A stretch of DNA of 64,000 bases from Alphaproteobacteria bacterium. GTDB lineage: Bacteria; Pseudomonadota; Alphaproteobacteria; JBFXJJ01. Numbering within the stretch: the stretch's first letter is position 1; every line of letters starts with the position of its first letter. The position numbers were made by a program, and so were the translations under genes. Positions 23,192 through 63,224 of the stretch are shown one piece after another. The notes under the pieces were generated by a model that was given only the letters and a program-made list of their open reading frames with translations, was not told the DNA's origin and did no database searches. The stretch is taken from positions 12,415-76,414 of the forward strand of contig JBFXJJ010000008.1 of the NCBI GenBank assembly GCA_050175015.1, given 5' to 3'.

Positions 23192-23269
23192 GCACTCGTA
23201 GCTCAGTTGGATTAGAGTGTCGGCCTCCGAAGCCGAAGGTCGCAGGTTCGAATCCTGTCGAGTGCGCCA
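23192..23269 (+). tRNA. tRNA-Arg (anticodon CCG)
   Basis: Manual cloverleaf. Acceptor GCACTCG/CGAGTGC, D-arm GCTC..GAGT, anticodon stem TCGGC/GCCGA with loop CTCCGAA, T-arm GCAGG-TTCGAAT-CCTGT, discriminator G and encoded CCA. Confidence 0.85.
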
Positions 23270-23632
23270 CTAATAATTTACTGATTTAATTAATTTATTT
23301 TTGTTTTTCGTTTTCGTGAAACAGCCCACAAAAACCCCTTGCGGGACAGTATGGGGACAAAATTTTTAAAAAATCTTGATAAATACTAATTATCTACAAC
23401 AATTAACAATTAAACCTTCAACGCAAACTTAAGCTTTTCCAAAAGATTTAGATTGTTGTTTTTTGTTGTTTATGGTTATTGATTGTCCCTTAGTTGTCCT
23501 TTTTAATACGTATTGCTAACAATATATCTTTTTAAAACAATATATTAGTGTATAAGATTGTCGGAATTATACTCTAATTGATTTATTTAAAAATATAATC
23601 TATAATGATGTGCGATTTTTAAAGGAGAGGTT

Positions 23633-24697
23633 ATGGCAACGATTGAAAAAAGAGAAACAGGCAAAGGGCTTCAGTATCGAGTTAAAGTTCGCAAAAAAGG
23701 CTTTCCAGCTCAAACCGCAACATTTTCTCGCTTAACAGATGCTAAGAATTGGGCGAATGAAATTGAAAGTTCTATTGTTAATAACCGCTATTTTCCAACC
23801 AATGAGCTTCGCAAAAGAACGATATCCGATTTAATTGAAAGATATATCAAAGAGGTTTTATCTAAAAAACCAAGACGAGCTTATGATGCTGTTCCTAAGC
23901 TTCGTTGGTGGCAGGAAAAAATTGGTTTATACACTTTGGCAGATTTAACAACCTCACTTCTTTTCGAAACAAGACAAAAACTTTTTGATGATGATATTAA
24001 AAACGGTAAGAAAAGAAGCAATACAACAGTTAATAAATATGCAACGGCTTTAAATACGGCTTTAAACATTGCGGTTAATGAATTGCAATGGCTTGAAAAT
24101 AATCCAATGAATAAGATTAAGAAGTTGAAAGAGCCAAGAGGCAGGGTTCGTTATTTATCAGAAGAAGAAAAAAACTCATTATTGAATGCTTGTAAGGAAA
24201 GCAAGAATCCGCATTTATTTAATGTTGTTTATCTGGCTTTAAGCACAGGAGCTAGATATGGCGAAATAATCAACTTAAAATGGGAGCAAATCGATTTTAA
24301 CCGCAAAGTCATCACTTTATACGAAACTAAAAACGGCGAAATAAGACTTTTGCCTCTGGTGGGCAAGTCTTATGAATTAATGAGAGAGCATTCTAAGGTT
24401 AGAAGAATTGATAGTGATTTGGTTTTTCCAAGTGCGATAAAACCTCAAAAGCCGATTGAAATAAGAAAATCTTGGCTTAACGCTCTTGAAAAAGCAGGAA
24501 TTGAAGATTTTAGATTTCACGATTTAAGACATTCAACTGCTTCTTATCTTGCTATGAATGGAGCAACTCTAGCCGAAATTGCAGAGGTTCTAGGGCATAA
24601 GACTTTGGAAATGGTTAAAAGATACTCACATCTATCCGAAGCCCACACCGCAGGCGTTTTAGAACGAATGAATCAAAAGTTTTTAGGTGAAGATTGA
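23633..24697 (+). CDS. int: Tyrosine site-specific integrase
   Basis: 354 aa. Catalytic region HDLRHSTASYLAMNGATLAEIAEVLGHKTLEMVKRYSHL (R..HxxR..Y). Confidence 0.85.
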   Translation: MATIEKRETGKGLQYRVKVRKKGFPAQTATFSRLTDAKNWANEIESSIVNNRYFPTNELRKRTISDLIERYIKEVLSKKPRRAYDAVPKLRWWQEKIGLYTLADLTTSLLFETRQKLFDDDIKNGKKRSNTTVNKYATALNTALNIAVNELQWLENNPMNKIKKLKEPRGRVRYLSEEEKNSLLNACKESKNPHLFNVVYLALSTGARYGEIINLKWEQIDFNRKVITLYETKNGEIRLLPLVGKSYELMREHSKVRRIDSDLVFPSAIKPQKPIEIRKSWLNALEKAGIEDFRFHDLRHSTASYLAMNGATLAEIAEVLGHKTLEMVKRYSHLSEAHTAGVLERMNQKFLGED

Positions 24698-24835
24698 GGC
24701 TTAACTTAAATATAAAAAATTTAATTTTATAGTAAAGTCAGTTAAAAATGATGCTAAAGTTAGGCAAACAAATAACTAAAAACAACAGAAAATTATCTTG
24801 TTTTCATAAGCATTTTATTTTGATTTGACATGTGT

Positions 24836-24881
24836 CTCATAACCTGAAGGTCGTAGGTTCAAATCCTGCCCCCGCAACCAA
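24836..24881 (+). repeat. 3'-half fragment of a tRNA-Met (initiator-like) gene; candidate att site, left end of the inner element
   Basis: CTCATAACCTGAAGGTCGTAGGTTCAAATCCTGCCCCCGCAACCA matches the anticodon loop (CAT) to CCA end of tRNA-fMet. No 5' half upstream. An imperfect copy lies at 53947-53995. Confidence 0.6.
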
Positions 24882-24909
24882 AATTAGATTGTAATATCAA
24901 TAAGTTAGA

Positions 24910-24937
24910 AAAATAAAAAGCCTCGAGAATCACTCGG
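24910..24937. terminator. Hairpin terminator flanked by A- and T-runs (bidirectional)
   Basis: AGCCTCGAG-aatca-CTCGGGGCT then TTTTT, preceded by AAAATAAAAA. Lies between the integrase and the convergent 580-aa gene. Confidence 0.5.
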
Positions 24938-25055
24938 GGCTTTTTGCTGTTGCCGCACCATTGCCGCAACGTGTGTTAATATCCATTAAAAAACTACCCA
25001 CAAGATTTTTGACATGGGATTCTTTTATATTGGAGATAGGGAGTTTTATATGAAA

Positions 25056-26798
25056 TTACATATTACAAAAGCGATACCAGTAATTAGCTGGAACGAGGGT
25101 TCTAAAGTGTCTATAAGCAATAAAATCTATTCCAAAATAACCATAATTATATGTTGGAGATTTTTCAACGCAATCGAAATGATCTAATTCTAAAAATTTT
25201 AGCATTATTTCTTTATAAGAGTTTATATCGACTTCTAATTTAATAGGTGCTTCAGAATGTCCTGCTTTATGGTGCAATGGAGAAAAATATAAATCATTTA
25301 AATCTTTACTTAAAGGATACCAAAGTTGAGCAGTAGTTTCTTTACATACCCCACTCATCATAACATACAAATTTTTGTAAAACTCTTCTTGTTTTAAGTT
25401 TACTGCCCAACCAGCAAAAGTTGGTATAAGCCAAGACATATTAGTTAATTTTTTAAATACGTCTTCATTTAAACTTTCTGTTCTAGACGTAATCAAATCG
25501 TCAAAATTATCAGTTGATATTGGATAAAAATAACGCTTAGACATTGTATAACCAAAAACTTCAACAATATCTATAAGCCATTGTGAAGCTATTTTATTTT
25601 CTCCCATCAACATTAGTAAAGACATAGCAAGTGTTATATCTATACAATTTTCATCAAAGCAAGGAGAATTAGATATTGAGTTGTTTTGTATAATTCCTAC
25701 AAGCAAAGATGTTGCTTTTTGGGCAGTTTTGAATTCTGAATAGGTGTTGTTGTTTGAAAAATAAAAATGAGAAAGTCCAATAGAGGATACTAATCCAATA
25801 ATTTCAAAAACTAATATACTAAACAGGCTACTATCTCTTGTGTATCCAGATAAGCCGTCTCTAACCATACAGTGGCGTTCAATTTTAGTTAGAAACTTTT
25901 TAGAAATATCTGAGTAAGTATTCCAAATGTTTTTAAAAGATGGTAAAAGTTTTTTTCTATCTCTCTCTGAAAGTTGGTTTAATAAGTTCCAAGACCAGAC
26001 AACAGCTCTTTCTGCTCCAATTACAGCTGGTTTTATATTGCCCTCATTCTCTGCCCAGTTAGTTAAAAGCCGAGTTGCTAAGTTTACACGGACAAGAGCT
26101 TTTTGTATTTCTTTTACTTTTTTCTTATCTTTTGTAAAAACACCATTTTTATCAAAATTTAATTGCCTTTGCAGAATATTATAAAAGTGTTTAAGAGAAT
26201 AATCAGGTTCACCAATTAAAGCTAGTGTTCTACGAAGATCATTACGCTCATCTTTGTCAAATAAGTTTTCATTTAAAAGATATTTTTGAATAAAGTTTGA
26301 TATTTCATCAGCACCCCAGAAATCAAACTCTGCATCATCTTTATGATCATTTGTATATCCTGCCCAATTTGGCTGAATTTCTTCTTTTAAGTCCCCAGTT
26401 GTGCCAAGAACAATTTTTTTAGGAAGTCTTTGTGCATTTGAGGGAACGCAACTTCTTAGGTAAACATCAAAAATTTCGTTTAGTGATGGGCGAACATCTT
26501 GTGTTCCTGTGTCCCAATTAGAACGACCAATATCTCCTTGTTTGAGAACGAATAAGAATAATTTCTCTATATTATCTTTGGGGTCAATACCAATGGCAGA
26601 TAAATCAACACCATTTTGCCTAGTCCCTCGTTGCGTTTTAGAGGTTGGTATAATTCCCATAGAATTTAATAAATCTGGAAGCAGCTTATCAAACTCGTCT
26701 CTTTCTTTTAATGTTCTTAAATATGTGGAAATAATTAATTTCATAAGATTTAACCCTGCTTTTCTTTTCTTACATTTATCAAACAAGATCTGCGGCAT
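25056..26798 (-). CDS. Hypothetical large protein; possible N-terminal PD-(D/E)xK nuclease-like motif
   Basis: 580 aa. GVDLSAIGIDPKDNIEKLFLFVLKQ resembles a D...ExK restriction-endonuclease-fold core. The rest is unrecognised. Confidence 0.35.
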   Translation of the reverse strand: MPQILFDKCKKRKAGLNLMKLIISTYLRTLKERDEFDKLLPDLLNSMGIIPTSKTQRGTRQNGVDLSAIGIDPKDNIEKLFLFVLKQGDIGRSNWDTGTQDVRPSLNEIFDVYLRSCVPSNAQRLPKKIVLGTTGDLKEEIQPNWAGYTNDHKDDAEFDFWGADEISNFIQKYLLNENLFDKDERNDLRRTLALIGEPDYSLKHFYNILQRQLNFDKNGVFTKDKKKVKEIQKALVRVNLATRLLTNWAENEGNIKPAVIGAERAVVWSWNLLNQLSERDRKKLLPSFKNIWNTYSDISKKFLTKIERHCMVRDGLSGYTRDSSLFSILVFEIIGLVSSIGLSHFYFSNNNTYSEFKTAQKATSLLVGIIQNNSISNSPCFDENCIDITLAMSLLMLMGENKIASQWLIDIVEVFGYTMSKRYFYPISTDNFDDLITSRTESLNEDVFKKLTNMSWLIPTFAGWAVNLKQEEFYKNLYVMMSGVCKETTAQLWYPLSKDLNDLYFSPLHHKAGHSEAPIKLEVDINSYKEIMLKFLELDHFDCVEKSPTYNYGYFGIDFIAYRHFRTLVPANYWYRFCNM

Positions 26799-28465
26799 TC
26801 ATAATCAGCACTGTTTAAAACAAATCTTCTTGGTAGTGTAAAACCAGATGAAAACTCCATATACCCTGTTGGTTCAGAATAGTTGCCTTCTAAAAGACTA
26901 AAGTTGGCAATACCAGCTTTTATAGGAACGACAGCACAAATTTGCCTAACAATAGATTTTTTTTCTCCTTCTTCCATGCTTTTTTGCATTCTTTTGTTTT
27001 CTGCCTTATGGAAGGCTTCTTTCATATTTTTAGACGGTTTTAACTCTTGTATCTCGGGCAACACGTCTAAAGCACTCATATAATTATTGATAAAGCTTGA
27101 AGCATCTTCACAAAGTTTTTTTATTTTTCCATTTTGTTCTGATAAACTGATATTGTTGAGTTTTTCAATTGTTAAAATAGGATAATCTAGACCAAGTTCC
27201 TCTGTAAAGAGCTCAAACAAAAGACCATATTTGTTATCTATAATTTCTGGAATTAGTAGTGATGAAAATGACGAGATGGCTTGCTCTTCATTTATAATAA
27301 CTCCTAGACATCTTTTTATGAAAAAAAGAAAATCTTTATCATTCATATTTTTGACAATATCTAAATCAAAAATAAGATTGTTTGCTTTAGAAACCGATAA
27401 TTTCTCTAATATTTCTTTTACAAACAAAACATAGCACATACTTTCTTTTGTAAGCCATTTTGTAACAAGATTAGAAATAACGTTAGGGCTTTCAAATAAC
27501 TTATAAAAAACATTATCAAAGCACTCTAATATTTTTATGTTCAATTTTCTTGAATCGTTATTTTTAACCCAATTTTCTATATAAGATATAGCTAATTCAA
27601 TATCACCACCTTCCGCTATTTTCTGTAAAACATAGTCAAAGTTTTGTATCGCACCTTTAGCAGAAGGTTTTATATATAATAAACAATTTAATAATGGCTC
27701 AAATAACCCTTGATGACGAATAGCTTCATCATTTCTAAACAGCAAGTCAGCTATAAAAGCTAAAGCCGTATCATCTTTAGCTTCTCCAAGCTCCAAAAGT
27801 TTTTTTGTTGCATTAATCCACTCTATTGAAGCTTCGGCTAAAGCTTGTATAGTTGCGTTTTTTATAGAAGTATCTTGAGATGATAGCCCTCTATTAAATT
27901 TATCCCATACAGCATCTTTATGTTTATCAGAAACACACTGTAATCTTGCTAGTCTTCCTAAAAGCCAAATATTATTTTGTGCAAGAAAATCACTACCGTT
28001 AAACACCGTTTCTAATATAAGATTTATAACTATATCAGGTTCTTTTTTCGCCCAAGCAATAACAGCTACATTGTATATTGAAGAGGTTTCTTCTGTAAGG
28101 CTTACTTTTAAAAGGTTGATAATATCACTACAGACATTAATGTCATCTCTAAGCCTAACCTCTAGTTTGTTTGGGAAGACGCCAGAGGCATAATCATTGC
28201 AAGTCTTTGGGTGTTGAACTCTGCATAGTTCGATTAAATTTTCTGCATTTAAAGATGTGATGAAAGGTAAAGCATCTCCTACTAAATGCAATACCTGAAA
28301 TAAATCAAAAGTATTCTCATTTATAACATCACAAGCAAGCTTAAAAATATCATTATGGTTATGAACTTTTGCTAAAAAACGACCAACAATATCTTTGTTT
28401 TTTTGTCTCCATAAATTATGGGCATGCTCAAAAATTTTCTCTGGTTTTATAGTTTTATTTTTCAT
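26750..28465 (-). CDS. Hypothetical alpha-helical repeat (HEAT/ARM-like) protein
   Basis: 571 aa, helix-rich with no catalytic motif seen. Overlaps the downstream gene by 49 nt. Confidence 0.35.
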   Translation of the reverse strand: MKNKTIKPEKIFEHAHNLWRQKNKDIVGRFLAKVHNHNDIFKLACDVINENTFDLFQVLHLVGDALPFITSLNAENLIELCRVQHPKTCNDYASGVFPNKLEVRLRDDINVCSDIINLLKVSLTEETSSIYNVAVIAWAKKEPDIVINLILETVFNGSDFLAQNNIWLLGRLARLQCVSDKHKDAVWDKFNRGLSSQDTSIKNATIQALAEASIEWINATKKLLELGEAKDDTALAFIADLLFRNDEAIRHQGLFEPLLNCLLYIKPSAKGAIQNFDYVLQKIAEGGDIELAISYIENWVKNNDSRKLNIKILECFDNVFYKLFESPNVISNLVTKWLTKESMCYVLFVKEILEKLSVSKANNLIFDLDIVKNMNDKDFLFFIKRCLGVIINEEQAISSFSSLLIPEIIDNKYGLLFELFTEELGLDYPILTIEKLNNISLSEQNGKIKKLCEDASSFINNYMSALDVLPEIQELKPSKNMKEAFHKAENKRMQKSMEEGEKKSIVRQICAVVPIKAGIANFSLLEGNYSEPTGYMEFSSGFTLPRRFVLNSADYECRRSCLINVRKEKQG

Positions 28466-29194: not shown

Positions 29195-29494
29195 TTAAGC
29201 AACCTTGTTGTAAGGAACAATCGCTTCAAGTTCGCTTGCTATCTTTCTTTTGGTTTTGATAAGCTCAAAATCTTCTTGAATGCCTAAAAAATAGCCTTCG
29301 GACAAACCAAAATATTTAGTAAGTCTTAAATCGGTATCTGCGGTTATGCCTCTCTTACCATTGATAATATCGCTAATGCGGTTTTGAGGTATCCCCAGAG
29401 CCTTCGCAAGAGAATTTTGAGATAATCTTAAGGGCTCTATAAACTCTTCCTGTAAGACTTCGCCAATGTGGGGTATGTCGATATATTTTTCCAT
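29195..29494 (-). CDS. higA: HigA-family antitoxin (XRE-type HTH)
   Basis: 99 aa. LAKALGIPQNRISDIINGKRGITADTDLRL HTH. Sits downstream of the toxin, as in higBA. Confidence 0.8.
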   Translation of the reverse strand: MEKYIDIPHIGEVLQEEFIEPLRLSQNSLAKALGIPQNRISDIINGKRGITADTDLRLTKYFGLSEGYFLGIQEDFELIKTKRKIASELEAIVPYNKVA

Positions 29495-29564
29495 TTTGAT
29501 AAACCCTTAAAAATAAAACCTTATTAGTTATATATAATACAGATAACATATAAAGTCAAGATTT

Positions 29565-29846
29565 TTAGTGATAATCAACAATTTCAACATTATGAGCGTC
29601 TTTGTCCTGCCAAACAAAACATATTCGCCATTTGTCGTTTATTCTGATTGAATGTTGCTCTTTTCTATCGCCTTTCAATGCCTCAAGATTGTTAGATGGA
29701 GGGATTTTTAAGTCCTCAATCCTTTTAGCCCTATTTATCATCGCAAGCTTGATTATAGCTCTTCTTTGAATATCAAAAGGAAGCTTTTTTGAGGTTTCTC
29801 CGTGCCAAATCTTGGCTGTTTCTTTGCATTTAAAAGATACTATCAT
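29565..29846 (-). CDS. higB: HigB-family toxin (RelE/ParE superfamily killer protein)
   Basis: 93 aa. ...WRICFVWQDKDAHNVEIVDYH C-terminus typical of HigB. Confidence 0.8.
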   Translation of the reverse strand: MIVSFKCKETAKIWHGETSKKLPFDIQRRAIIKLAMINRAKRIEDLKIPPSNNLEALKGDRKEQHSIRINDKWRICFVWQDKDAHNVEIVDYH

Positions 29847-32800
29847 TTTTTAACATTCTCTACGGCAACAATAACTTCGCTTTTGACTTGTTTTGCGTTT
29901 TGTTCGATTGCATCAAGATAGTTTTCACCTAATTGTCCTTTTATAAACTCAATTTCTTTAATAAAAGCAGTGATTTCTTTTTCGCTACTCTGATTGCCTA
30001 TTTCCTGAGAAGAAAGTCTCCTTAATGAATATTGAGATAAGGTTTTATATTCTCTTAAATCCTTAATCAAAACTCTTATAAATGATGACAAACTGCTAAG
30101 CCTATCCTCATAAAAACGTATAGATGCATTAAGATTATTTATAGCTTTAGTTTCAAGTGAGTTTTCGTTGCTTTTATGATGAAATTTAGGCTTCTTTTCT
30201 TTGATGTTTTCGTATGTATCCCAAAACATATCAGAATGTTTGATTTTAGGTTCAGTTTGTTTGCATTCAATATTAGGCAACAGGCTTTCAATATTTATAT
30301 CAAAAATATCAGGCTTTTTATCTCCTTCAACCTTTGCTAGTTGAACAAAAAACCCTAACGCTTTTTTTCTAACTACAATGACTTGATTTTCTTTAAAGTT
30401 TTTAGCCGTCTTAACTCTGTTAGGCAGATATTTAATCTTTTTAAAAATTTCAGGGTATTCTATCCTAATATCCTCAATTTTATTTCTAATTTTGGTGATG
30501 ATGCTTTCTTCTTCATTATCTTCAGGGTTTGAATTTATGCGTTTAAAAAGCTCTGAAGCAGAAGGAATTTCATCTTGGGTAAAGACTTTTGAATCTTCAC
30601 CAAGCGTATTATGAATAAGAAACATTTTCTGGCTTGCGATTTCTTTACTTTTTATAACATCAGCACCTTTTAGGGTTGGAAAGAAGTTGCAGATATAAAG
30701 CTCATCAAAAACCTTTTTGCCAATACGGTTAATTCTTCCGATCCTTTGAATAACCCTAGTTGGGTTCCAAGGAATATCATAATTTATGATTGTTCCTGCT
30801 CGATTTAGATTGAAGCCTTCAGAAAGCTTATCGCTGGCAATAAGAATGGAGTAATTATCTTCCTGTTTGCTTTTAGCAATGCTTGCATCAAAATTTTTAT
30901 AAAGTGTTTCAGCCGTTTTTTTGTTTAAATCACCAGTAAAGGAAAAAACTTTGTTAGGAAAAGCATTTTCAATCGTTTCCTTAAGGTGAGCAACTGTATC
31001 TAAATACTCGGTAAAAACAATAAGTTTGCGGTTTTGCTCTTTTTTTATACTTTCTTTTAAAAAATCAATTAGCTTTGCCCTTTTAGGATCAGAATTTGCT
31101 AAATCAAGATTATCTATTTCTTTTTTTATTTTAGCAAACAAGGCTAAATCACTATCTATATCTTTTAAGAATTGATTTTTATTATAAAAACTATTGATGT
31201 CATAAATTCGGTTATTTTTTGGAGCTTTCTTATCGAGCAGTTCTTCAGCAAATTTTTCTAAGTGTTCTTCAATAGTATCTTCATCTTCAGAGTAAATTTT
31301 ATTAATCAGCTTTCTATCAAGAATATATTTGCCATTTGAATTTTCGATAAACTCTTTAATTTTGATATGGGCTTTTTCAAAGTTTTCAATACTTTTTTTG
31401 AACGCTCCAAAAGAGCTTTCAAACCGTTTTACAAGGAGTCTTCTCATAAAGTCATATAAGTTTCTTTGTTGTTGATATTCCCTGTTATCATCTTGGTTTA
31501 AGTCTTCAAGATTAAGTTTTTTCTCATAGTTAAATGGCTGATAAATTGCCCCTTTAAATTCCCCCACTTCTGCAAAATACTCTTTAATGACCTTGTCGTA
31601 AAATTCTGATTGCTTTTCGTTTAACTCAAAAAGCAATTCTTGAGGGTCTTTAACCTTTGAAAGTTCTTTAACCTCTGTTCGATATTGATAATCGTTTTTA
31701 AGGTCTATTCGGTTTCTTCTAATTAGAATTGGCTCAATAATCTGCCTGATTTCGTTTGATAGTTCGCTTAAGCGGTTTTTAACTTTTTTAATATCGGCAT
31801 ATTCTTCTTTAAAAAGCTCAAAATATTGCTTTTTAGATTTGGCAAGTTTTTCAATATCGTTAGAGTTATGATACCTAGAAACATAAGCAAGTTTGTTAAA
31901 AAGGTTTTCATAGCTTTTAAATCTAGCTTCAATGTTATCATCAAGTGTTATTAGAGATTTTCCTGGAACGATAAAAAGTTTAAGGAGAGAGAATATATCC
32001 GCAGGGCTGTTATTAAATGGTGTGGCGGTTAGCAAAATCACAATTTTGTTACGACAAATCATGTTTAAATATTCATAATCTTGCGTATCTTGATTGCGGA
32101 AACGATGAGCTTCATCAATAACCACAACTTCAATATCCTTACCTTGATTATTCATATATTCAGCAATTTCTTCAAGCTTGCCTGTTGACCTAACCTCCCA
32201 GTCAAAGAGTTCAAAATCACTTTTGTATTTTTGCCAGCCAGCGTTAGCATTAGCATCGCCAATTAGTCCAGGAGGGCAGATAATCATTCCTCTTTTGCCA
32301 ATATTCTTGGCAATGGCACTTGCTATAATCGATTTTCCAAGCCCCACCACATCGGCAATAATAACGCCATTATAGTTTTCGATAATGGTTAGGGCTTGAT
32401 TGACGGCATCAAGCTGATAGGAATAAGTCTTATAGCCCTTATCTTCTAAAATTCTGATGACTTGAGGTTTTATTTTTCTTTGTTCTTGAAGGTCTAAATA
32501 GGTTTTTAAGATATAAGCATACGCTTCAAAAGGCGTAACATTTGCAACTTGAGATTTATTGTTTAGAAAATCGATTAAAAATTGCTTCCTTGCATTATCT
32601 TCAGTAATTTTAACAGAGGTTTCCCAAAGCTCATCAAAGTAGCTTTCTGCATCTTCGGTGCCATAATCAGAAATTTCAACATTAAACTCGTTTTGTTTTT
32701 CAAGTCCTGCTTTGGTTAGATTGCTAGAGCCCGTAATAAACTTAGTATCAGAAATATGCTTTAACTGGTCATTGATTTTGAAAAGATAAAGTTTTGCATG

Positions 32801-36655: not shown

Positions 36656-36657
36656 AA

Positions 36658-46465: not shown

Positions 46466-46506
46466 GAAAATTCAAGGATTTTTCAATTATTTTTTTTGTA
46501 ATTTAT

Positions 46507-53995: not shown

Positions 53996-54139
53996 CTAAG
54001 AAGCCCGCAGTCTCAACATCTTACGGGCTTATTTATCTGAAAATTATGTGTAAAAAAATACCAAAACTATGCTAGCGTAGTATGTAAAAGCAAGTTTTAT
54101 CAACTTTGGAAAGTTTCAATCAATGATATTAAGACAAAA

Positions 54140-54973: not shown

Positions 54974-55018
54974 AATGTCTCCATTATTTTATGATGTATC
55001 ACAAAAATTATATTGAGA

Positions 55019-55201
55019 TTATTTGTTTTTTTGATTTATTTCTTTTTCTAACTCTTCAAATTCTTCAGGGTCGGCATAGGCAATCTTGCCGTCTCGCCAG
55101 ACAACAAGTTTTGTGCCAGTTTGTTTGGCAATTTTGATAGCCTCTAAACCGCCAGCTTTTATACCTTCAAGAATTTTATCAGTATTAATTACATCTAACA
55201 T
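55019..55201 (-). CDS. Small hypothetical protein (possible partner of the zeta-like kinase)
   Basis: 60-aa ORF, 3 nt downstream of the P-loop gene. Confidence 0.3.
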   Translation of the reverse strand: MLDVINTDKILEGIKAGGLEAIKIAKQTGTKLVVWRDGKIAYADPEEFEELEKEINQKNK

Positions 55202-55204
55202 AGT

Positions 55205-55792: not shown

Positions 55793-55795
55793 AAA

Positions 55796-58700
55796 TTAAA
55801 CCTCACTCTCTTTATCTTTTTCAGTATCTGCTTCAATCACAGCTTTTATGTCTGCAATATGTTTTTTGGTAAAATATATTTTCATATCTTTATCAGCTAA
55901 AACTACTTCAAGTTCATTTCCTTCAATTTCTTTAAACATTTCCAATATCAAATCATCAGAATCGTTTGCATGACAGAACATGGCTGAGTGATTAGGACAA
56001 AGAGCTAAATAATTTTGATAATGTCTTTTTTCTAAATCACTTCTTAAAAATTCGGTGGTCTCAAAATAGTAATTCCCATCTTTTAATTTAAAAGGCAATT
56101 CCTTTTGGCATATTTGACATATCATTTTGCCGTCTGGGTTTGTGTATTGACTGATTAAATAATTTTTTGCTTCTTTTTTTACATCTTCACGGTTTGTTGA
56201 TACTGAGCGAGTTCTTTTTTCGAATGTCCTTTCTGGGGCACTAGAGGCTTGTGCTCTAACTCTTTCTCTTCTTCTTTCTGGGTTTAATGGCTCATCTTCT
56301 GGTAATTCAAAATTATCATCTTCTTCTTTTTCGGCTAAAATTCTTTCTTGTTCTTCTTCAGGTAATTCTGCAAAACGTCTCGCTCTTTCGGCTGAAGCAA
56401 TATCTTTAAAACCTAGTTTTTTGGCGGCTTCTTCTTTCTCCTTTTTTTGTTCTAGTAATTTTAGTTTTTCTTCTATTTGTTTTTTTGATTTTTCTTCTTC
56501 TTCTAATTCTTCTTTTGTCGGCTCTCTTTTTGCGTTAAAGCCAAAATTTATAGCAAGCAAAAAGTTGTCGCCTTTATCATAAGAAAAGCCCTTTGGCAGC
56601 AAATCGCTAAAAGCCTTGTTTGGGGTTACAAAACTTATTTCTTTTGTTTCATTTTCTTGAGGTATCCATTCATTATTTTTAAGCACTTTGATTAGGGTTG
56701 ATTCTGCCATTCTTGGATCTACTGAACCATTGGGCTTATAAGATGCTTCAACTATATTTTGATACCACCAGTAATCTTTAGAAAATGACGAGTCATTATT
56801 TTTAAGCGTATTCCATATTAGTTTAGAAACATTAATCTCTTTTTCTCCTAATACCTTTTCAAGATTGGGAATATGCCAGTCTTGAAAAGATTCATAATCT
56901 GTTACTCGTCCAGAACAAGACCAAACCAAGTTCCGTTGAAGACTTTTATCTTCTTGTTTTTCTATTGCTAGTTCAGTTTTAACACCCACATTTTTAAAAA
57001 AATCAACAAGTTTTTCTTTTTCAATTTTAAGCTTTAAATATTTATTGGATATTTTATGCAAATTATGACCTTCAAATGCAGAATAAAAAGCACTTAAGTT
57101 TGTTTCTTCATACGGGCTATCAATATATAATTGCTCAATTTTTCTCCACTTACCATTTTCACAAAGAATAATATAAGACTCTTCAAATAAATCGGTTTCA
57201 TCAGGATTTTTTTCTAAAAAATCAATAAAAATTTTAATGTCTTCAATTTTGGAAAATCTATTGCCAATCCAATACCGTTCTTTTAAAAAACACTCTATAT
57301 ATTCTTTCTCTCCAAACTCTCTAACGCCCATTTTTTCTAAAAATAATTTGGCATTTTTTTGCTCTGCTTGGTTTTTTCCTAAAGAATATGTTTTAGGTTC
57401 AACTGTTGGGTAAGTATTTTGTTTTCTTTCTTCATTATAAAAAAAGCATTCATTTTCCGAGTTAAAATTACCATCAGTTAATTTTATAATTTTGCATTTT
57501 TTAAGTTGCCATAAACTTGAATAGTCTTTTTCTACTATTTCATATAAAAAAGCATAAAAGTTTTGAAGCCATTCGTTAGTTTTTTTGCTTAGCCATTCTT
57601 TTGAAGTTTCTTCAATTTCATTTTTTGTATACTTTGCAGTCAAAGTTTTTATTAAATCTTCTTTATCCCATTTCTTTATTTGTAAGCTATTAAGAAACTT
57701 ATCAGCATTATCACTTCTCTGCCGTGATGACATAACCCATAAAGGAGGCTGTTCATCATAATCAAAAAGAAATTCCATATCCTCATTGGATAGCAAATCC
57801 TTTAATTTTCGATCTCCTTGCAATAAATATTTAGCAGGATAATGTGTTCGACAAAATGTGGGAGTTAATGCTTCATTGTTCATTTTATCAATTATTTTTT
57901 CTCTGATTACTTCGTATTTATCAGAAATGTCGTCATCTCCATTAGGTAAAACATTTAAGAAATCGGTGTTCAAAAGATTTAAATCTTTGATTCTATGTAA
58001 TGATTGAGCGGTTAAATCAGCTAATTGTTCATATAAGGAATCGTTTGCAGGGGTGTTTTTAATACTTGCTCTGCTTAATTCGGGAACAAATGGTGCGTGG
58101 AGATGGAATCTTAATCCAGATATTTCTTTTTTAGCAGGGAAGAAAACGGAAACATTGGCAGGCTCGGCAACAACAATTTTCACTTGATTTGATAAATCGT
58201 TATTAGCGTTAAATTCTTTTACCCCAGCTAAAAAATCAAGCGGAAAAGCAATGGCAACTTTTTGTTTTTCTAAACCTTTGACTGGAGCATCAAACTTTAG
58301 AAAATGTGAGCTTTCAGTGGTTTTACCATTTATTTGTTTTAGAATTTCAATATGGTTTGGAGAGTGTTTTGTTCTTAAAACTTCACCAGATGTTTCTGAT
58401 AAAATTTTCCAGCTAATTGTTTCAATGTTATTTAAGAATAGCAAAGTTGTTTCTTCAAGCTCGTTTAGCCCATCCTTGATTTCTTCAAAAGCATCTTCTT
58501 GGCTTTTTTTGTGATTATTAAATGGAAATTCAAATTTGGTTTTTTTTGAATTAATAGGACTTAATTCAAAAGGTAAAACCAAATCTGTTATTTTAAAGGA
58601 AAATGTAGGAGACCATATATGAGGTGTTTCAGAGTATGCAAAAACAGCTTTAAATCCTATTCCAAATCTTCCTATTTTGTCGTTGTCATCTGCCTTTGTT

Positions 58701-58993
58701 CCTTCGCCAATATCTGTAATTGCAAGAATATCTTTCTCATCAAAAGGTCTGCCGTTGTGTTCGAATATCAGTTTGTTATTATGTAATGTAAAAGTTACGT
58801 CTTTAGCTTCGGCATCTTCTGCATTTTGCAATAGTTCGTATATAAAATGAGCACTATCTGGGTATAAGTCTTCAACGATTTTTCTTATACCAGTGTGTTT
58901 TTTCAAAACCCGAGCTAATTCGTCTCGTTCCTCAACTCTTATTTTTTCTATGATATTCATTTTACATTTTTCCCGAAACTTCAATAACTCCAA
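55796..58993 (-). CDS. GHKL-superfamily ATPase (HATPase_c, MORC/Hsp90-like) with C-terminal DUF3883-like domain
   Basis: 1065 aa. Bergerat-fold N-box IYELLQNAEDA, G1/G2 boxes DIGEGT...GRFGIGFKAVF. The C-terminal region ...CQICQKELPF...YLALCPNHSAMF is DUF3883-like. Confidence 0.65.
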   Translation of the reverse strand: MELLKFREKCKMNIIEKIRVEERDELARVLKKHTGIRKIVEDLYPDSAHFIYELLQNAEDAEAKDVTFTLHNNKLIFEHNGRPFDEKDILAITDIGEGTKADDNDKIGRFGIGFKAVFAYSETPHIWSPTFSFKITDLVLPFELSPINSKKTKFEFPFNNHKKSQEDAFEEIKDGLNELEETTLLFLNNIETISWKILSETSGEVLRTKHSPNHIEILKQINGKTTESSHFLKFDAPVKGLEKQKVAIAFPLDFLAGVKEFNANNDLSNQVKIVVAEPANVSVFFPAKKEISGLRFHLHAPFVPELSRASIKNTPANDSLYEQLADLTAQSLHRIKDLNLLNTDFLNVLPNGDDDISDKYEVIREKIIDKMNNEALTPTFCRTHYPAKYLLQGDRKLKDLLSNEDMEFLFDYDEQPPLWVMSSRQRSDNADKFLNSLQIKKWDKEDLIKTLTAKYTKNEIEETSKEWLSKKTNEWLQNFYAFLYEIVEKDYSSLWQLKKCKIIKLTDGNFNSENECFFYNEERKQNTYPTVEPKTYSLGKNQAEQKNAKLFLEKMGVREFGEKEYIECFLKERYWIGNRFSKIEDIKIFIDFLEKNPDETDLFEESYIILCENGKWRKIEQLYIDSPYEETNLSAFYSAFEGHNLHKISNKYLKLKIEKEKLVDFFKNVGVKTELAIEKQEDKSLQRNLVWSCSGRVTDYESFQDWHIPNLEKVLGEKEINVSKLIWNTLKNNDSSFSKDYWWYQNIVEASYKPNGSVDPRMAESTLIKVLKNNEWIPQENETKEISFVTPNKAFSDLLPKGFSYDKGDNFLLAINFGFNAKREPTKEELEEEEKSKKQIEEKLKLLEQKKEKEEAAKKLGFKDIASAERARRFAELPEEEQERILAEKEEDDNFELPEDEPLNPERRRERVRAQASSAPERTFEKRTRSVSTNREDVKKEAKNYLISQYTNPDGKMICQICQKELPFKLKDGNYYFETTEFLRSDLEKRHYQNYLALCPNHSAMFCHANDSDDLILEMFKEIEGNELEVVLADKDMKIYFTKKHIADIKAVIEADTEKDKESEV

Positions 58994-61900
58994 AAATTAT
59001 AGGAGTTGCTCTTATGTCCCCGCTATTTGAAGTCTGCTCAAGCTCTTTCATTCTTCTATCAAAATCTGCATTTGCTCGTGCTAACTCTGCTTCTTTCATA
59101 ATCTTAATTTTATCGTTATTTGCCTTTTCTAGCTGGGCTTCTATCGTTTTACATCTTGCCCTGTGGCTAATGGTTAGGCTTTGCATTTTATGTTCAACCA
59201 GCTCTTTGTTTAAAGAAAAATGTTCGTTTTTCTTTTCTAACCATTTTTGATAATGTAGGTCTTCAAGTTTGTTTAAAATGCTCTCGTTCAATTCCAACTT
59301 AATATCAGCATTTCTTGCTTGAGAAATTATGTTTAATAGTCTTTGTTCTAGAGCAATGTCATCGGTAATAGAAACTAGCATTTCTTCGTTTTTAATGCCT
59401 GATTTTAACCATTTGTATATGGCAAAATAGTATGTTCCTGATTTTAAGTCGGCATCTTCTAAAGCTAATTTAGTTTTTTTGATTTCTTTGATTTCAAAGA
59501 ATTTTGCTGATTGTTTTATTAATGGGTGAAAAACTGATAAATAAACAATGTCTGGGTTGTCTTTGGCTATTTCTTGTTCAAATGTTATAGAAAGACTAGG
59601 CTTGTTTCCCTTAAGCCATTTTTCCCATTCTCTATGCTGTGGATCGTTAGAGTTATATATGGCTTTTAAATCACTTAACAATAAATCTCTGGCTTCTTGG
59701 CTTAATTTAAGATTTTTAATATCTTTTTCTCCAGAAATATGATTGTCTTCGTTTTTTAATTTATTGCATAAATAGCTATTCAAACAGTTTTGTAAATAAT
59801 TGGGAGATAAGAAAGAATTTTCAGCATCATCTAAGTCGTTTTGCCAAGAACTTTTAGGGATATTTAAGCCAAAAAACTCTGATTGTTTTTCTTCCAAATT
59901 TTGCTCTTCTTGGATAAGTCTGATCTTATTATCTGCTAGCTGTTGTAACCTGTTTTTTCTTTCCTCATCACTTAAATTAAAGTTTTCTGCAATTTCCTTA
60001 ATTTCTTGGTTTATTTCGCCAAGAATTTCTTCATTACCGCCGACTGTAGATTGAAAAACGCCTATACGCCATAAGCATCTTTCATATATATCACCATCTA
60101 CGGTATTGGGAGTTACTAAATTAATGATGGCAACGGTTTCACTTTTCTGCCCATATCTATCAATACGACCTATTCTTTGTTCTATACGCATAGGATTCCA
60201 AGGCAAGTCATAGTTAATTAGTAAATCACAAAATTGGAAATCTAAACCCTCACAGCCAACCTCAGATGATAACAAAACATCTATGGCATTTTCATTTTCT
60301 TTAGGCATAGAAAACCGTTTTCTTAAGTCTGCTCGGTCTTCGTCTTTTATATCTCCATGAATTAAAGCAACCCTGATATTGGCTTTTTTTGTTTTTTCAT
60401 AAAGATAATTTAATGTGTGCCTGAATGTGCTGAAAACCATAGCCTTGTTGTTTTCAAGGTTGTGTTTATCTAATAGGACTTTTATAAAAGCCTCAGCTTT
60501 TGGATCATAAGGGTCTAATGTTTTGGCATCTTCTATTATTTTTGAAATATCGGTTTTTATCTCATCTATAAAGTCGTTGTTATATAAAAAATCCTCATAT
60601 TCATCGTTGGCATAGTTATCACCGTCTAACAAGCTAAGTCTTTTGTTTAAAATATCCGATAGCGTAGGGACAAGAGCGTAAATACAACTTGAGGCTTGTC
60701 TTCGTATTGTTGTCATTAAAAACTTAACGAAACGTTCTCCGTGATAATAAGCTAAAATCTTTCCAACAATTTCAAGCAATTTATCGTGAAGATATTTTTG
60801 GTCTTTTGTAAACTCAACTATAATAGTTTCAGGTTTTCTTGTGGTGAAATTTCCAATATCCCTTCTTCTTGTTCTGTTTATGATGGAACTGAAAGTGTAA
60901 ATTTCTTCAAGATTCTTAATGGTTTTTATTCGTTCGTTATCAAGTATCTTATGTTCTTTCAAGCCATCATATGTTTTTTGAAACAAAGGGTTCTCTCTTA
61001 TAAACATTCTGCCCCATTCAGTATTAGCAACACTTTCAAGTGCAACAATAGCTTCTTTGTTCCAATCTTTGTTAGCTGTTCTGCAACAGCTTATAGCTTT
61101 GTTAATGAAAATATTGGGGGCTGCCATTTGAGAAAAGCTGTTTTTATCTATAACTAGGTCTGGTCTTAAGACGTTTAGCAAAGTAAAGAGGTCTTCACTG
61201 CCGAGTTGAACAGGGGTTGCAGTTAAAAGTAAAACAGCTTGAGCGTTATCACATAAAAAACGAACGCCATTATGTAGCAAAGTGTTCTGGTTTCTAATAT
61301 GATGAGCTTCATCAACAATTACTAAATCAAATTTAGGTGGAGGATCAAGTTCTAACAAACCATAATCTTTGCTTTTGCCTCGGCCTTGTTTGCCAAACAG
61401 GTTGTCTGAATCAAAAAGAGAGAAAGGCATAATTGCTTTAGAATATTTATGAGGCCATTCGCCTTCTAAATAAGTTTCTTGAATACAGCTTCTTAACAAA
61501 GAACCATCTATAGAAGAAAAATCTTCATTAAAACGCTTCATTTCTATTTGCCACTTTTTCTCTGCCACAAGGGCTTTTGGACACATAACTAAAATAGAAG
61601 ATATATCCATTCTTGCTTGTAATTCTTTGATAATTAAACCAGCCTCAATTGTTTTACCAACACCCACCTCATCAGCAATTAATATGCGAGGTCTATCACT
61701 GCGAATCAACTTCATAACAGGTCTATATTGGTATGGAACAAAATTTACTCTGCCCATTCTAAGAGAAAATAGCTCTTTAAAAGATGGGGATAATATTTGA
61801 GAGCTTGTGAGATATGCCTCTAATTCTTTTTTGTTGATAATTTCAGATTTAATTTCTGGTAAGTTTTTAGATTGAAGTTGGCTTTCATAATATGTTGCTA

Positions 61901-62522
61901 TGGTATTGTTTTGAAAAACCTTATATCGTTTTTCTACGCCATCTATTATTTCTATAATTGGAAAAACTGAATTTTCATCTGAACGCAAACAAACAACATC
62001 ACCCACTCTAAATAAAGAAACTTGTTTTTTTTCAAGATTATTGTTTGTCGGACTATCTTCGGCAGAAACTGAATTTTTCAATTCTTTTTGTTGCATTTCT
62101 GCAAGAGATTTTTGCTTGGTATCATTTATTATTTTTATGGTTTCATTTTTAGAGCCTAACGTTTTTAATAGTCTTTCAAGCGTGTCTGCATCTCTATAAA
62201 GTTCATTGGCAGGAACATCTTCAGATGATAAATGAGCCCACTTGTTTCTGACATTTTGCAACTCTTTTAGCCAATTTCTAGCCTCTCTTGGTAAATTGAT
62301 GATAGATGTAATCTCATACCAGTTTTGATCTAAAATTCTTAACAATGCAGCAAAGTCTAGCTGTTCAAGACTTTTTACATTTTTTTCCCTTATTATTCGT
62401 TGTTGCTGAAAACTAAGTCTTTCGATAACGCTTTTTTCCCACCAGTTAGAATCTGTTTTGGGTAGAATGTCATTTAAAAAAACGGTTAGGTCTTTAGTTG
62501 CTAAAGAAATTAAATCAATCAA
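58962..62522 (-). CDS. SNF2-family helicase with N-terminal Swt1-like HEPN domain
   Basis: 1186 aa. HEPN Rx4H motif LQNVRNKWAHLS (coded about 62237-62254). Helicase motifs ADEVGVGKT (I), VIVDEAHHIRN (II), LLTATP (III), IEQRIGRIDRYGQ (VI). Confidence 0.75.
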   Translation of the reverse strand: MIDLISLATKDLTVFLNDILPKTDSNWWEKSVIERLSFQQQRIIREKNVKSLEQLDFAALLRILDQNWYEITSIINLPREARNWLKELQNVRNKWAHLSSEDVPANELYRDADTLERLLKTLGSKNETIKIINDTKQKSLAEMQQKELKNSVSAEDSPTNNNLEKKQVSLFRVGDVVCLRSDENSVFPIIEIIDGVEKRYKVFQNNTIATYYESQLQSKNLPEIKSEIINKKELEAYLTSSQILSPSFKELFSLRMGRVNFVPYQYRPVMKLIRSDRPRILIADEVGVGKTIEAGLIIKELQARMDISSILVMCPKALVAEKKWQIEMKRFNEDFSSIDGSLLRSCIQETYLEGEWPHKYSKAIMPFSLFDSDNLFGKQGRGKSKDYGLLELDPPPKFDLVIVDEAHHIRNQNTLLHNGVRFLCDNAQAVLLLTATPVQLGSEDLFTLLNVLRPDLVIDKNSFSQMAAPNIFINKAISCCRTANKDWNKEAIVALESVANTEWGRMFIRENPLFQKTYDGLKEHKILDNERIKTIKNLEEIYTFSSIINRTRRRDIGNFTTRKPETIIVEFTKDQKYLHDKLLEIVGKILAYYHGERFVKFLMTTIRRQASSCIYALVPTLSDILNKRLSLLDGDNYANDEYEDFLYNNDFIDEIKTDISKIIEDAKTLDPYDPKAEAFIKVLLDKHNLENNKAMVFSTFRHTLNYLYEKTKKANIRVALIHGDIKDEDRADLRKRFSMPKENENAIDVLLSSEVGCEGLDFQFCDLLINYDLPWNPMRIEQRIGRIDRYGQKSETVAIINLVTPNTVDGDIYERCLWRIGVFQSTVGGNEEILGEINQEIKEIAENFNLSDEERKNRLQQLADNKIRLIQEEQNLEEKQSEFFGLNIPKSSWQNDLDDAENSFLSPNYLQNCLNSYLCNKLKNEDNHISGEKDIKNLKLSQEARDLLLSDLKAIYNSNDPQHREWEKWLKGNKPSLSITFEQEIAKDNPDIVYLSVFHPLIKQSAKFFEIKEIKKTKLALEDADLKSGTYYFAIYKWLKSGIKNEEMLVSITDDIALEQRLLNIISQARNADIKLELNESILNKLEDLHYQKWLEKKNEHFSLNKELVEHKMQSLTISHRARCKTIEAQLEKANNDKIKIMKEAELARANADFDRRMKELEQTSNSGDIRATPIIFGVIEVSGKM

Positions 62523-62616
62523 AAGATTCTCCTTAACTCAACATAAATTTAAAATATCGAACCAAAATTATAATAGTTATATTAAGTTTTAAAGTCGATA
62601 TTTTTACTAAAATAAA

Positions 62617-62760
62617 TCGTTGAGCAATAAAGTTGCGAATAATGATTTTCCCATTAGGGCAGGATTAAAGTAGTATTACTTTTACTATCCTGCCTTCTAA
62701 AAGTGTGAGAAATTTTGAGACATTATAAAAATTGATAAATTTTAAAAAAGCCTTTGTTTT
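62617..62760. repeat. Conserved leader element copy B with hairpin (62658-62694), upstream of the HEPN-SNF2 operon
   Basis: Homologous to 42283-42455 (see that entry). Confidence 0.55.
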
Positions 62761-62810
62761 CTAGGTATTTAAAGCGTTAAATATTCAAAACTGATTAATA
62801 AGGGCATCAA

Positions 62811-62950
62811 AATGTCTCAAGAGTCTTGAAAAGTCTTAATAATTCTTAATTTTTCTTAAAAAATCTTAAAATTTCTTAAAGTGTTTCAAAAAGTCCTAAA
62901 AATTCTTAAAAAATCTCAATTTGTTTCAAATGTCTTAAAGTTTTTGAATT
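62811..62950. repeat. About 14 degenerate tandem repeats of roughly 10 bp (TCTTAAAA / TCTCAA / TTCAAA), phased A/T tracts
   Basis: Read directly: ...GTCTCAAGAGTCTTGAAAAGTCTTAATAATTCTTAATTTTTCTTAAAAAATCTTAAAATTTCTTAAAGTG.... Confidence 0.6.
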
Positions 62951-63177
62951 TTCTCATCAATTTGGAGGGCAGGATAGTATCAGCAATATTGCTGATAAAT
63001 TTTGAGGGCTTATTCGCCTTCAGCTCAACGATAAAAACCTACGGGACACTGTAGGGACACTTTTTTATAAAAACGGGTAAAAATGGGCAAAAAATGACAA
63101 TCTCTCTTTTTTCACAAGAGCTTGGTTTTCTTATTGTTTTTGATTGTAAGCGGTTGATATTATTGTCTTTTTGAGAA

Positions 63178-63224
63178 CTCCGAAGCCGAAGGTCGCAGGT
63201 TCGAATCCTGTCGAGTGCGCCACT
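63178..63224 (+). repeat. attR: 47-bp direct repeat of the tRNA-Arg 3' half
   Basis: Identical to 23225-23271. Confidence 0.85.

Follow-up and report, generated by a model that had tools for sequence, protein, structure and literature searches.

How does an integrative element bounded by fragments of tRNA-Met come to lie within a tRNA-Arg island that carries no intact tRNA-Met gene? The question arises from a 64,000-nucleotide stretch of DNA (hereafter the window, whose numbering is used throughout) from a metagenome-assembled genome of an uncultured alphaproteobacterium. The initial annotation called the arrangement unusual and offered two explanations, insertion into a tRNA-like att site on the outer island or recombination between two elements. 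The evidence leans towards the former: the region is probably a composite of two integrative elements, the outer of which carried a degenerate tRNA-fMet relic that served the inner integrase as its point of insertion. The word 'unusual' is fair for the missing tRNA 5′ half; islands that are nested or composite, on the other hand, have been described before (PMC8978831, PMC10111431, PMC9585547).

The outer element spans positions 23225-63224 (about 40 kb, or about 10.8 kb without the inner insert). All of its originally described parts were found, namely attL in tRNA-Arg(CCG), a perfect 47-bp attR at 63178, and a small integrase. The tRNA-Arg(CCG) is the only tRNA that ARAGORN detects in the window, and the perfect repeat runs from its anticodon loop to its 3′ end. 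The element thus bears the Islander signature. Its left end keeps a whole tRNA gene, its right end has the displaced 3′ fragment, pointing the same way, and inside are a tyrosine integrase gene and, in both arms, arm-type repeats:

23192-23269, + strand: intact tRNA-Arg(CCG), by ARAGORN; its 3′ part, 23225-23271, is the attL identity block
23343-23359, + strand: arm-type site pair GGGACAgtatGGGGACA, P′ arm, direct, matching in position GGGGCAatctAGGGGCA in L007
23484-23500, - strand: arm-type site pair, inverted, reading AGGACAactaAGGGACA on this strand; L007 also has an inverted pair
23633-24697, + strand: outer tyrosine integrase, 354 aa (Pfam Phage_integrase, 1.2e-35)
63043-63059, + strand: arm-type site pair GGGACActgtAGGGACA, P arm, from the motif search
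63178-63224, + strand: attR, the displaced tRNA-Arg 3′ half, identical to 23225-23271 at 47 of 47 positions

The pattern GGGACAn4RGGGACA has three matches in place of the 0.01 expected, all confined to the two outer arms. Two of these pairs account for the CGGGACA motif noted earlier near the outer ends; the inverted third pair had been missed. The same layout recurs in L007, a locus at another tRNA whose integrase is 82% identical, and relatives of the outer integrase adjoin many different tRNAs. Two further relatives, P0003 and P0004, have integrases 80% and 71% identical to it.

Besides its integrase, the outer island holds defence cargo, and has no conjugation genes or transfer functions. 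Homologues of its 277-aa protein adjoin SACS and helicase genes elsewhere. The features that flank the inner element on the outer side are:

24698-24835, no strand: spacer X, from the outer integrase stop codon to the inner element
54001-54034, + strand: terminator-like hairpin after the right inner att copy, on the outer-island side, read from the sequence
54140-62522, - strand: outer cargo, comprising the 277-aa protein, a zeta-toxin-like NTPase (55205-55792), a Sacsin/TmtA-like ATPase (55796-58993) and a HEPN-SNF2 helicase (58962-62522)

The inner element (24836-53998, 29.1 kb) sits in the non-coding gap between the converging outer integrase gene and outer cargo, and interrupts no gene. 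Its ends are organized as follows:

24836-24880, + strand: left att copy, a flawless tRNA-fMet 3′ half from anticodon loop to CCA with no 5′ half, in the position of the intact tRNA in the related locus L004
24915-24945, + strand: terminator-like hairpin after the left att copy, on the element side, read from the sequence; L004 has an equivalent
24950-24968, + strand: doubled arm motif TTGCCGCAccaTTGCCGCA, P′ arm, 69 nt from the core; the L004 equivalent is 48 nt from the tRNA end
53813-53831, + strand: doubled arm motif (19-mer TTGCCGCACCATTGCCGCA), P arm, 120 nt from the core
53952-53998, + strand: right att copy, a degenerate tRNA-fMet 3′ half adjoining the inner integrase gene

The tRNA-fMet 3′ halves that bracket the inner element are real, and neither copy has a 5′ half according to ARAGORN, reading of the sequence, or Rfam, which returned no tRNA match. 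The copies lie where they had been placed, with small corrections to their limits; shared identity on the right begins at 53952 rather than 53947, and the left copy ends at 24880. Likewise, the right copy of the reported 19-bp direct repeat is at 53813-53831 as described, and the left one is at 24950-24968, not 24941. The two att copies have in common the exact 18-mer CTCATAACCTGAAGGTCG, found at these two places only (0.04 expected), and both start with the very first base of the anticodon loop, as site-specific exchange, and not random deletion, would lead one to expect. The right copy is marred by one substitution and a 1-nt insertion in the T stem, by CCCCCGC changed to CCCCTGC, and by ACCA changed to ACCTA. 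Co-oriented tRNA 3′ fragments at both ends and an integrase inside delimit the element, and with no intact tRNA-Met in the window it falls outside the Islander definition, which calls for one. No outer-type arm motif occurs near the inner junctions, which argues that the outer integrase did not make them.

Gene annotation located every component that had been reported between the inner copies, the P4-type integrase, AlpA, primase and Mob genes, along with an extensive cargo:

25056-28465, - strand: Olokun-like pair, OloB (25056-26798) and OloA (26750-28465) (PADLOC 7.5e-152 and 2.5e-64)
29195-29846, - strand: HigB-like toxin and HTH antitoxin, by annotation
29843-34646, - strand: PLD/HKD-SNF2 helicase (29843-33238) and ApeA-domain protein (33189-34646), by annotation
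34686-37593, - strand: three-gene ABC-3C / PDC-M68-like defence system (Pfam DUF2326, MC6, CTD10; PADLOC PDC-M68B 9.5e-90)
37603-42172, - strand: type IIG restriction-modification enzyme (37603-41187) and PDC-S18-like protein (41150-42172), by annotation
42690-46355, - strand: ParE toxin, Gp49/HI1420 toxin-antitoxin pair and double-Cache chemoreceptor (44193-46355), by annotation
46507-48353, - strand: mobilization module, with MobA/VirD2-type relaxase (46507-48036) and NikA-like accessory protein (48033-48353)
48666-51176, - strand: replication/excision module, with Toprim-DUF3631 primase (48666-50624), Zn-ribbon protein (50621-50941) and AlpA/excisionase-like HTH_17 protein (50934-51176)
52441-53745, - strand: inner P4-type integrase, 434 aa, with an Arm-DNA-bind_3 domain, from domain search and alignment

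The alignment places R236, K261, H374, R377, H400 and Y409 of the integrase in invariant columns that fit the catalytic residues of tyrosine recombinases. The mobilization module matches Pfam Relaxase (5.1e-29), TraI_middle and NikA-like (3.1e-10) families, and the replication/excision module matches PHROGs primase and excisionase families. Having its own site-specific recombinase and a relaxase with accessory protein, the inner element is, judged by its gene content, an integrative mobilizable element (IME) with many defence systems; among ORFs of at least 80 aa, Pfam identified no type IV secretion system or coupling protein in it. We also considered a P4-like or PICI-like phage satellite, which would have genes for capsid remodelling, packaging or other dealings with a phage beside int-alpA-primase. 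That set is present, but so is a relaxase, and Pfam and PHROGs gave no phage structural or packaging matches.

The assignment of the inner repeats as att sites draws support from relatives of the inner integrase. Upstream DNA was compared for seven contig sets at 35–67% integrase identity, and in all seven a tRNA-fMet 3′ half without its 5′ half lies upstream of the integrase gene; the two are divergently oriented in L001, L004, L006, L076/77, L078-80 and L081/82. At 59–67% identity, moreover, a doubled TTGCCGCAnnnTTGCCGCA motif recurs 119–120 nt from the core, as in the window (120 nt), a spacing seen in four independent relatives (L001, L004, L076/77 and L081/82). This conservation of motif and spacing bears out the suggestion that the 19-mers are arm-type integrase sites. 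The window shares with this lineage an fMet 3′ half upstream of and divergent from int, and a doubled TTGCCGCA whose distance from the core is in the range of 119–120 nt. The opposite end, away from int, is visible in one relative, L004, where the relic stands at the int end, an intact tRNA-fMet at the far end, and an arm motif inside each; at the far end the window has the 3′ half alone. Two relatives have tandem relics, identical and 9.7 kb apart in L081 and double in L006. By these sequence comparisons, the inner repeats are supported as the att sites of a tRNA-fMet-specific integrase lineage of Alphaproteobacteria, which recombines at the anticodon loop of initiator tRNA-Met and keeps its integrase gene far from the tRNA.

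With the sum of this evidence, we infer the following order of events. The outer integrase would have integrated a small defence island at the anticodon loop of tRNA-Arg(CCG), rebuilding the tRNA and moving its 47-bp 3′ fragment to what is now 63178. In the reconstructed pre-insertion target, a 5′-truncated, already degenerate tRNA-fMet 3′ half would have lain between the outer integrase gene and the cargo, so that the relic predated the insertion. The inner integrase would then have taken this relic as a substitute attB, with strand exchange within the shared 18 bp; to judge from the extent of the identity blocks, the 7-nt anticodon loop CTCATAA is the most likely place. Since the element must carry a good 3′ half to repair real tRNA genes, the flawless half at the left junction would be its own contribution, and the damaged one at the right junction, beyond the crossover, would come from the target. 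At the left junction the loop has no anticodon stem half-site on its 5′ side, so the substitute attB would have lacked half of the expected inverted repeat. Nor do the flanks point clearly to a source of the relic: X is only weakly like a P arm of the family, and Y lacks the arm motif. Either unit may still be movable.

Three other histories could produce a similar structure. In one, the inner element first entered a tandem array at a genuine tRNA-fMet locus, beside an older element of the same family, giving a left junction of P arm, core and P′ arm; a deletion or homologous recombination then brought this block, with the flank downstream of it, up against the tRNA-Arg integration module, and the whole now moves only as one unit. 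We regard this as unlikely, though it has several points in its favour. Tandem relic arrays are known in the family (L081, L006), a complex PICI tandem with unrelated att sites has been attributed to homologous recombination (PMC10111431), and the last 35 nt of spacer X bear a weak likeness to the P arm of L004 and L081 (18/35 and 17/35 matches; empirical frequency 0.0034 and 0.014). At least two extra, unobserved events are needed, however, with end points that spare both outer arms and the full-length outer integrase gene, and left of 24836 nothing remains of a second element of the fMet family, neither integrase nor arm motif nor other gene. The right arm, moreover, is a coherent defence module, its 277-aa gene keeping company with SACS and helicase genes elsewhere, and does not resemble the flank of a chromosomal tRNA-fMet.

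A simpler history, in which the outer island once had a complete tRNA-fMet, the inner element integrated normally and the 5′ half was deleted afterwards, would explain the flawless left 3′ half and agrees with the intact gene that the family normally has at that end (L004). The deletion, however, would have had to stop precisely where the anticodon loop begins, which is also the boundary of the right copy. On this account the right copy would be the original 3′ end, now displaced, yet it differs at four places in 46 nt although the element's genes are undamaged; we consider this history improbable. Least probable is an assembly artefact in which an element from a tRNA-fMet locus was falsely threaded into the tRNA-Arg island. 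The source is a metagenome-assembled genome, and L072, a Logan contig from an independent assembly that matches the window at 100% identity from 53960 to 62999, does end inside the right att copy. Its other end likewise coincides with nothing of note, which suggests that its breaks have to do with coverage, and L072 joins the last 36 nt of the right copy, its idiosyncratic degenerate part, to the outer right arm. The inner junctions, moreover, share 18 bp only, far below assembler k-mer sizes, so that two coordinated false joins would be required, and a mis-join across a real tRNA-fMet would keep the 5′ half on one side, where there is none.

Insertion into a relic, the reading we prefer, makes the composite another case of one island lying inside another, a known phenomenon and no new kind of system. 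Its closest counterpart is the composite island CGI48 of Shewanella putrefaciens CN-32, which is integrated at tRNA-Trp and carries GI21, the two excising separately (PMC8978831). Both cases involve a tRNA-integrated island that holds a second island with its own integrase, a different target, and toxin-antitoxin genes in the inner unit. GI21 normally targets the protein-coding gene yicC, and its capture was credited by the authors to short att sites (PMC8978831). The inner att site here, in contrast, is a 45-nt tRNA-derived sequence, which excludes its presence by chance. Anticodon-centred att sites with identity blocks reaching the tRNA 3′ end are the commonest Islander class (PMC4383910), and both elements have, like Islander islands, such a block starting at the anticodon loop, a 3′ fragment displaced without change of orientation, and an integrase of the tyrosine family; the inner element differs in having no intact tDNA at one end. 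Some Islander tRNA/tmRNA islands form tandem arrays with a single common att core (PMC4383910, citing Williams 2002). The present pair is not such an accretion array, which would have three or more att copies with one core, since its Arg and fMet cores are only 65% alike and its geometry is nested, not serial.

Nested composites, including IMEs inside ICEs, are also described in Firmicutes (ICEscreen, PMC9585547; Streptococcus suis, PMC7168690). There, as here, one integrative element houses another that is mobilizable and brings an integrase and a relaxase of its own. In our case, by contrast, the host element has no conjugation genes, the target is a tRNA relic and not a gene of the host element, and the lineage is alphaproteobacterial. 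Helper-embedded PICIs (PMC10111431) resemble the inner element in being nested, in their P4-type Int, AlpA and primase, and in a doubled 8-mer arm motif placed once per arm at a fixed distance from the crossover; the inner element differs in its relaxase, its lack of packaging and capsid genes, a host that is not a prophage, and the absence of an interrupted host gene.

The current understanding of integrative elements is unchanged by these findings, which provide a clean, fully delimited case of defence islands growing by elements landing within one another. On the reading preferred here, an integrase that ordinarily requires a tRNA gene can also land in a half-tRNA left over on a mobile element. 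Software that recognizes islands by a whole tRNA gene at one of their ends would overlook the inner element. Both integrases, having defined att and arm sites of the anticodon-loop class (tRNA-Arg(CCG) and tRNA-fMet), are candidate tools for poorly studied Alphaproteobacteria. As a speculation to which we give little credence, the fMet relic might be a docking site from whose use both partners benefit: a helper could mobilize the 40-kb outer circle through the inner relaxase and a putative oriT, and the inner element would gain a second way into the chromosome, at tRNA-Arg, and could still leave alone. If such relics are maintained on islands of this type, they would be portable attB sites that assemble defence islands in modules.

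The only tRNA gene that ARAGORN detects in the window, tRNA-Arg(CCG) at 23192–23269, lies at the left end of the outer element. A 47-bp stretch (23225–23271) that begins with the anticodon loop (CTCCGAA) and stops 2 nt beyond CCA is repeated with no mismatches at 63178–63224, and a co-oriented gene for a tyrosine integrase of 354 aa (outer Int) starts 364 bp past the tRNA. The GGGACA motif that the initial annotation had noticed near both outer ends proved to be real: GGGACAn4RGGGACA occurs three times in 64 kb, where 0.01 matches are expected.

Outer arm-site pairs (matches to GGGACAn4RGGGACA)
23343, direct pair
23484, inverted pair, 125 bp beyond the direct pair
63043, direct pair, 119 bp ahead of the right repeat

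Because tRNA, 47-bp repeat, integrase and arm motifs are all present, the outer element is a complete tRNA island of the anticodon-centred class, the commonest in the Islander survey (PMC4383910). Between the start of the HEPN-SNF2 gene and the outer P-arm site (62819–62916), about nine copies of TCTTAA(A/T)4 recur with a period of 10 bp, a phasing that points to intrinsic DNA bending or to serial protein-binding sites in this att arm.

The source is a low-GC, metagenome-assembled alphaproteobacterial genome (MAG), and three proteins of the window match proteins of one such MAG at 100% identity. Left of 23192 the window is ordinary chromosome, with genes for NAD synthase, a PAS-GGDEF-EAL protein, [FeFe]-hydrogenase-like proteins, a U32 peptidase and a Rex-like regulator; an isocitrate/isopropylmalate dehydrogenase gene follows to the right of 63224. 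G+C content is 30–38% across the whole window and does not tell its parts apart. The two [FeFe]-hydrogenase-like genes and the Rex-type regulator of the chromosomal flank (13693–18349) suggest an anaerobic or fermentative lifestyle for this MAG.

Nested islands had been proposed here from the sequence, and this observation is borne out: the outer tRNA-Arg island holds an inner element situated between two tRNA-fMet 3′ halves. Just two copies of the 18-mer CTCATAACCTGAAGGTCG are present, at 24836 and 53952. The left copy (24836–24880) is a flawless tRNA-fMet 3′ half through CCA, and the right copy (53952–53998) has a T stem with a substitution and a 1-nt insertion, one more substitution, and an extra T in its CCA end. 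ARAGORN, Rfam and reading of the sequence find no tRNA 5′ half at either copy; Rfam scans gave only sub-threshold chance matches across the left junction and none across the right one. The caveat raised in the initial annotation, that tRNA-Met-like repeats might be common intergenic repeats, does not hold in the 64-kb window, which contains just two. All genes between the copies are on the minus strand.

Genes of the inner element
52441–53745, minus strand, P4-type integrase of 434 aa with arm-binding domain (inner Int; backbone)
minus strand, AlpA/excisionase-like protein (backbone)
minus strand, Zn-ribbon protein with Toprim-DUF3631 primase (backbone)
minus strand, NikA-like protein and MobA/VirD2 relaxase (backbone)
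minus strand, double-Cache chemoreceptor (cargo)
minus strand, three toxin-antitoxin pairs (cargo)
minus strand, type IIG restriction-modification enzyme and PDC-S18-like protein (cargo)
minus strand, ABC-3C/PDC-M68 system (cargo)
minus strand, ApeA-domain protein and HKD-SNF2 helicase (cargo)
minus strand, Olokun-like OloAB pair (cargo)

The inner element yielded no genes for type IV secretion, coupling proteins or phage structural proteins, and with this content it is an integrative mobilizable element carrying a defence island. Several smaller features lie within it. A 45-bp direct repeat, 93% identical, occurs at 43283–43327 and 46503–46547, the second copy overlapping the 3′ end of the relaxase gene; the intervening 3.2 kb, which has a Gp49/HI1420 toxin-antitoxin pair and the chemoreceptor gene but no recombinase, could be a third-level insertion or a cassette swapped in beside the relaxase 3′ end. 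A perfect (TC)17.5 microsatellite (46430–46464) precedes the chemoreceptor start codon (46355, minus strand) by about 75 nt and is a candidate for slipped-strand switching. Within the chemoreceptor gene, a 333-bp tandem duplication (45366–45999, 86% identical) corresponds to its two sCache_3 sensor domains.

Comparison across the inner integrase family is the main addition to the account in the initial annotation. Six loci, all in alphaproteobacterial MAGs (Micavibrio, Rickettsiales), were recovered when species-representative genomes were scanned with inner Int, and a protein search with contig look-ups added three further contig sets. In seven contig sets, a relic, that is, a tRNA-fMet 3′ half lacking its 5′ half, lies 140–300 bp upstream of a divergent int gene, as at the right end in the window.

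Contig sets with a tRNA-fMet relic, and integrase identity to inner Int
L001, 64%
L004, 59%
L006, 35%
L076/77, 62%
L078–80, 67%
L081/82, 60%

Measured from the loop edge of its relic, a doubled motif, TTGCCGCAnnnTTGCCGCA, stands at 119–120 nt in L001, L004, L076/77 and L081/82, and at 120 nt in the window. Other P4-type integrases are reported to have doubled arm motifs, with one in each arm at a set distance (PMC10111431). The end away from int is within reach in one relative only, L004, whose 9.4-kb element terminates in an intact initiator tRNA-Met gene, followed by a hairpin and then by the doubled motif 48 nt inside the element. The left end in the window keeps this order, with the 3′ half followed by a hairpin and by the doubled motif at 69 nt, but the tRNA 5′ half is missing. 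Taken together, the relics beside int, the motif spacing and the far end of L004 indicate, by sequence comparison, that this lineage targets tRNA-fMet and keeps int at the end away from the tRNA. In the window, the copy lacking a 5′ half occupies the exact place where the tRNA gene of the lineage belongs.

Other loci differ. L002 (52% identity to inner Int) adjoins an intact tRNA-His instead of a tRNA-fMet relic; its int gene lies just downstream of that tRNA and is co-oriented with it (4303–5974), and its att site is therefore inverted relative to int when compared with the tRNA-fMet group. A search for the relic in L003 and L005 (about 40% identity) found none. Viral contigs gave no match to inner Int as a single protein, and just one truncated and two distant relatives with an alignment; tblastn at 1e-60 against PLSDB plasmids gave no match. 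In L081, the 9.7-kb segment between two identical relics (99–143 and 9819–9863) has two-partner secretion genes and a transposase fragment. A 786-aa ORF left of tRNA-Arg was considered as a relative of a 786-aa ORF in L004 and rejected (BLASTP E = 2.0), the equal lengths being coincidental.

How, then, did an element with tRNA-fMet specificity come to lie inside a tRNA-Arg island? In the outer and the inner element alike, the identity block opens with the anticodon loop and continues to the 3′ end of the tRNA. An integrating element needs to carry such a block only when exchange takes place at its 5′ edge. Were strands exchanged there, the element would supply everything 3′ of the crossover, so that the flawless left 3′ half would derive from the element and the degenerate right one from the target, as established att-site logic for tRNA genes implies. 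The target would then have been a 5′-truncated, decayed tRNA-fMet 3′ half with a terminator-like hairpin after it, in a gap of about 280 bp that separates the stop codon of the outer int from that of a gene encoding a 277-aa protein. The insertion breaks no gene. This uncharacterized protein has homologues of about 50% identity across many phyla, and since at one locus (three overlapping contigs, L083–L085) its homologue adjoins Sacsin/TmtA-like and helicase genes, the gene appears to belong with the outer cargo. Within that cargo region (54140–62522), the protein is probably an unrecognized part of a Tiamat-like defence module.

We consider insertion into a relic already on the outer island the probable history. 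The interpretation in the initial annotation is both supported and sharpened, with tRNA-fMet specificity now backed by relics beside relatives of inner Int. The 35 nt to the left of the left copy match P-arm segments of L004 and L081 at 18 and 17 of 35 positions, scores reached by 0.34% and 1.4% of all window 35-mers (about 0.02 after correction for seven comparisons), a likeness that would fit, weakly, a solo relic that an older element of this family left behind. The sequence 120 nt upstream of the left copy, where a P arm would have the doubled motif, has none; that position is the outer int stop codon. Had the island carried a complete tRNA gene that later lost its 5′ half, a random deletion would be unlikely to have stopped precisely at the edge of the loop, and we regard this history as quite improbable. 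A composite built by rearrangement seems unlikely, though tandem relics do occur in the inner Int family, in L081 and in L006 (9489–9507 and 9663–9707).

Off-target exchange of outer Int with tRNA-fMet (the tRNA-Arg and tRNA-fMet cores are 65% alike) was also considered and rejected: a pattern search over the window found no GGGACA arm motif near either inner junction, and outer Int therefore did not create them. An assembly artefact is very remote. L072, a Logan contig assembled independently from run SRR27751817, is 100% identical to 53960–62999, and in it the idiosyncratic part of the right copy is continuous with the outer right arm. This contig breaks off 8 nt into the shared 18-mer at one end and by a 20-nt palindrome (62980–62999) at the other; reading the end at 53960 as a sign of an excised subpopulation was rejected, given its position within the 18-mer and the equally arbitrary other end.

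The outer integrase has relatives at other tRNAs. In L007, from another metagenome, an integrase 82% identical to outer Int lies downstream of tRNA-Ser(GCT), and the layout (tRNA, hairpin, direct pair, inverted pair, int) is common to L007 (1–420) and the window (23192–23632), with GGGGCA as the arm motif in the former and GGGACA in the latter. Two further relatives of outer Int, P0003 and P0004, share 80% and 71% identity with it. Farther relatives adjoin Gln, Leu, Met, Thr, Lys, Gly and Arg(ACG) tRNAs, and within this family the target and arm specificities seem to turn over rapidly. The locus L010 (6006–11164) has two outer-family integrases 2.8 kb apart with a HipA toxin gene in between, one with a tRNA-fMet relic and GGGGCA arm motifs, the other with GTGTACCA arm repeats and a tRNA 3′-half-like relic (loop CTGAAAA) that we read as tRNA-Phe(GAA). 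It was rejected as a second case of nesting, as ordinary relics beside the int genes of two outer-family integrases suffice.

Nested and composite islands are already documented. In the CGI48/GI21 island of Shewanella, a tRNA-Trp island contains a yicC-specific island and both units were shown to excise (PMC8978831); IMEs within ICEs (PMC9585547, PMC7168690) and helper-embedded PICIs (PMC10111431) are known as well. Unlike in those cases, the landing site of the tRNA-specific element here would be a tRNA-derived relic on another island. What is new, then, is two previously undescribed alphaproteobacterial integrase/att pairs, and the tRNA relic of one island as what would be the landing site for a tRNA-specific element.
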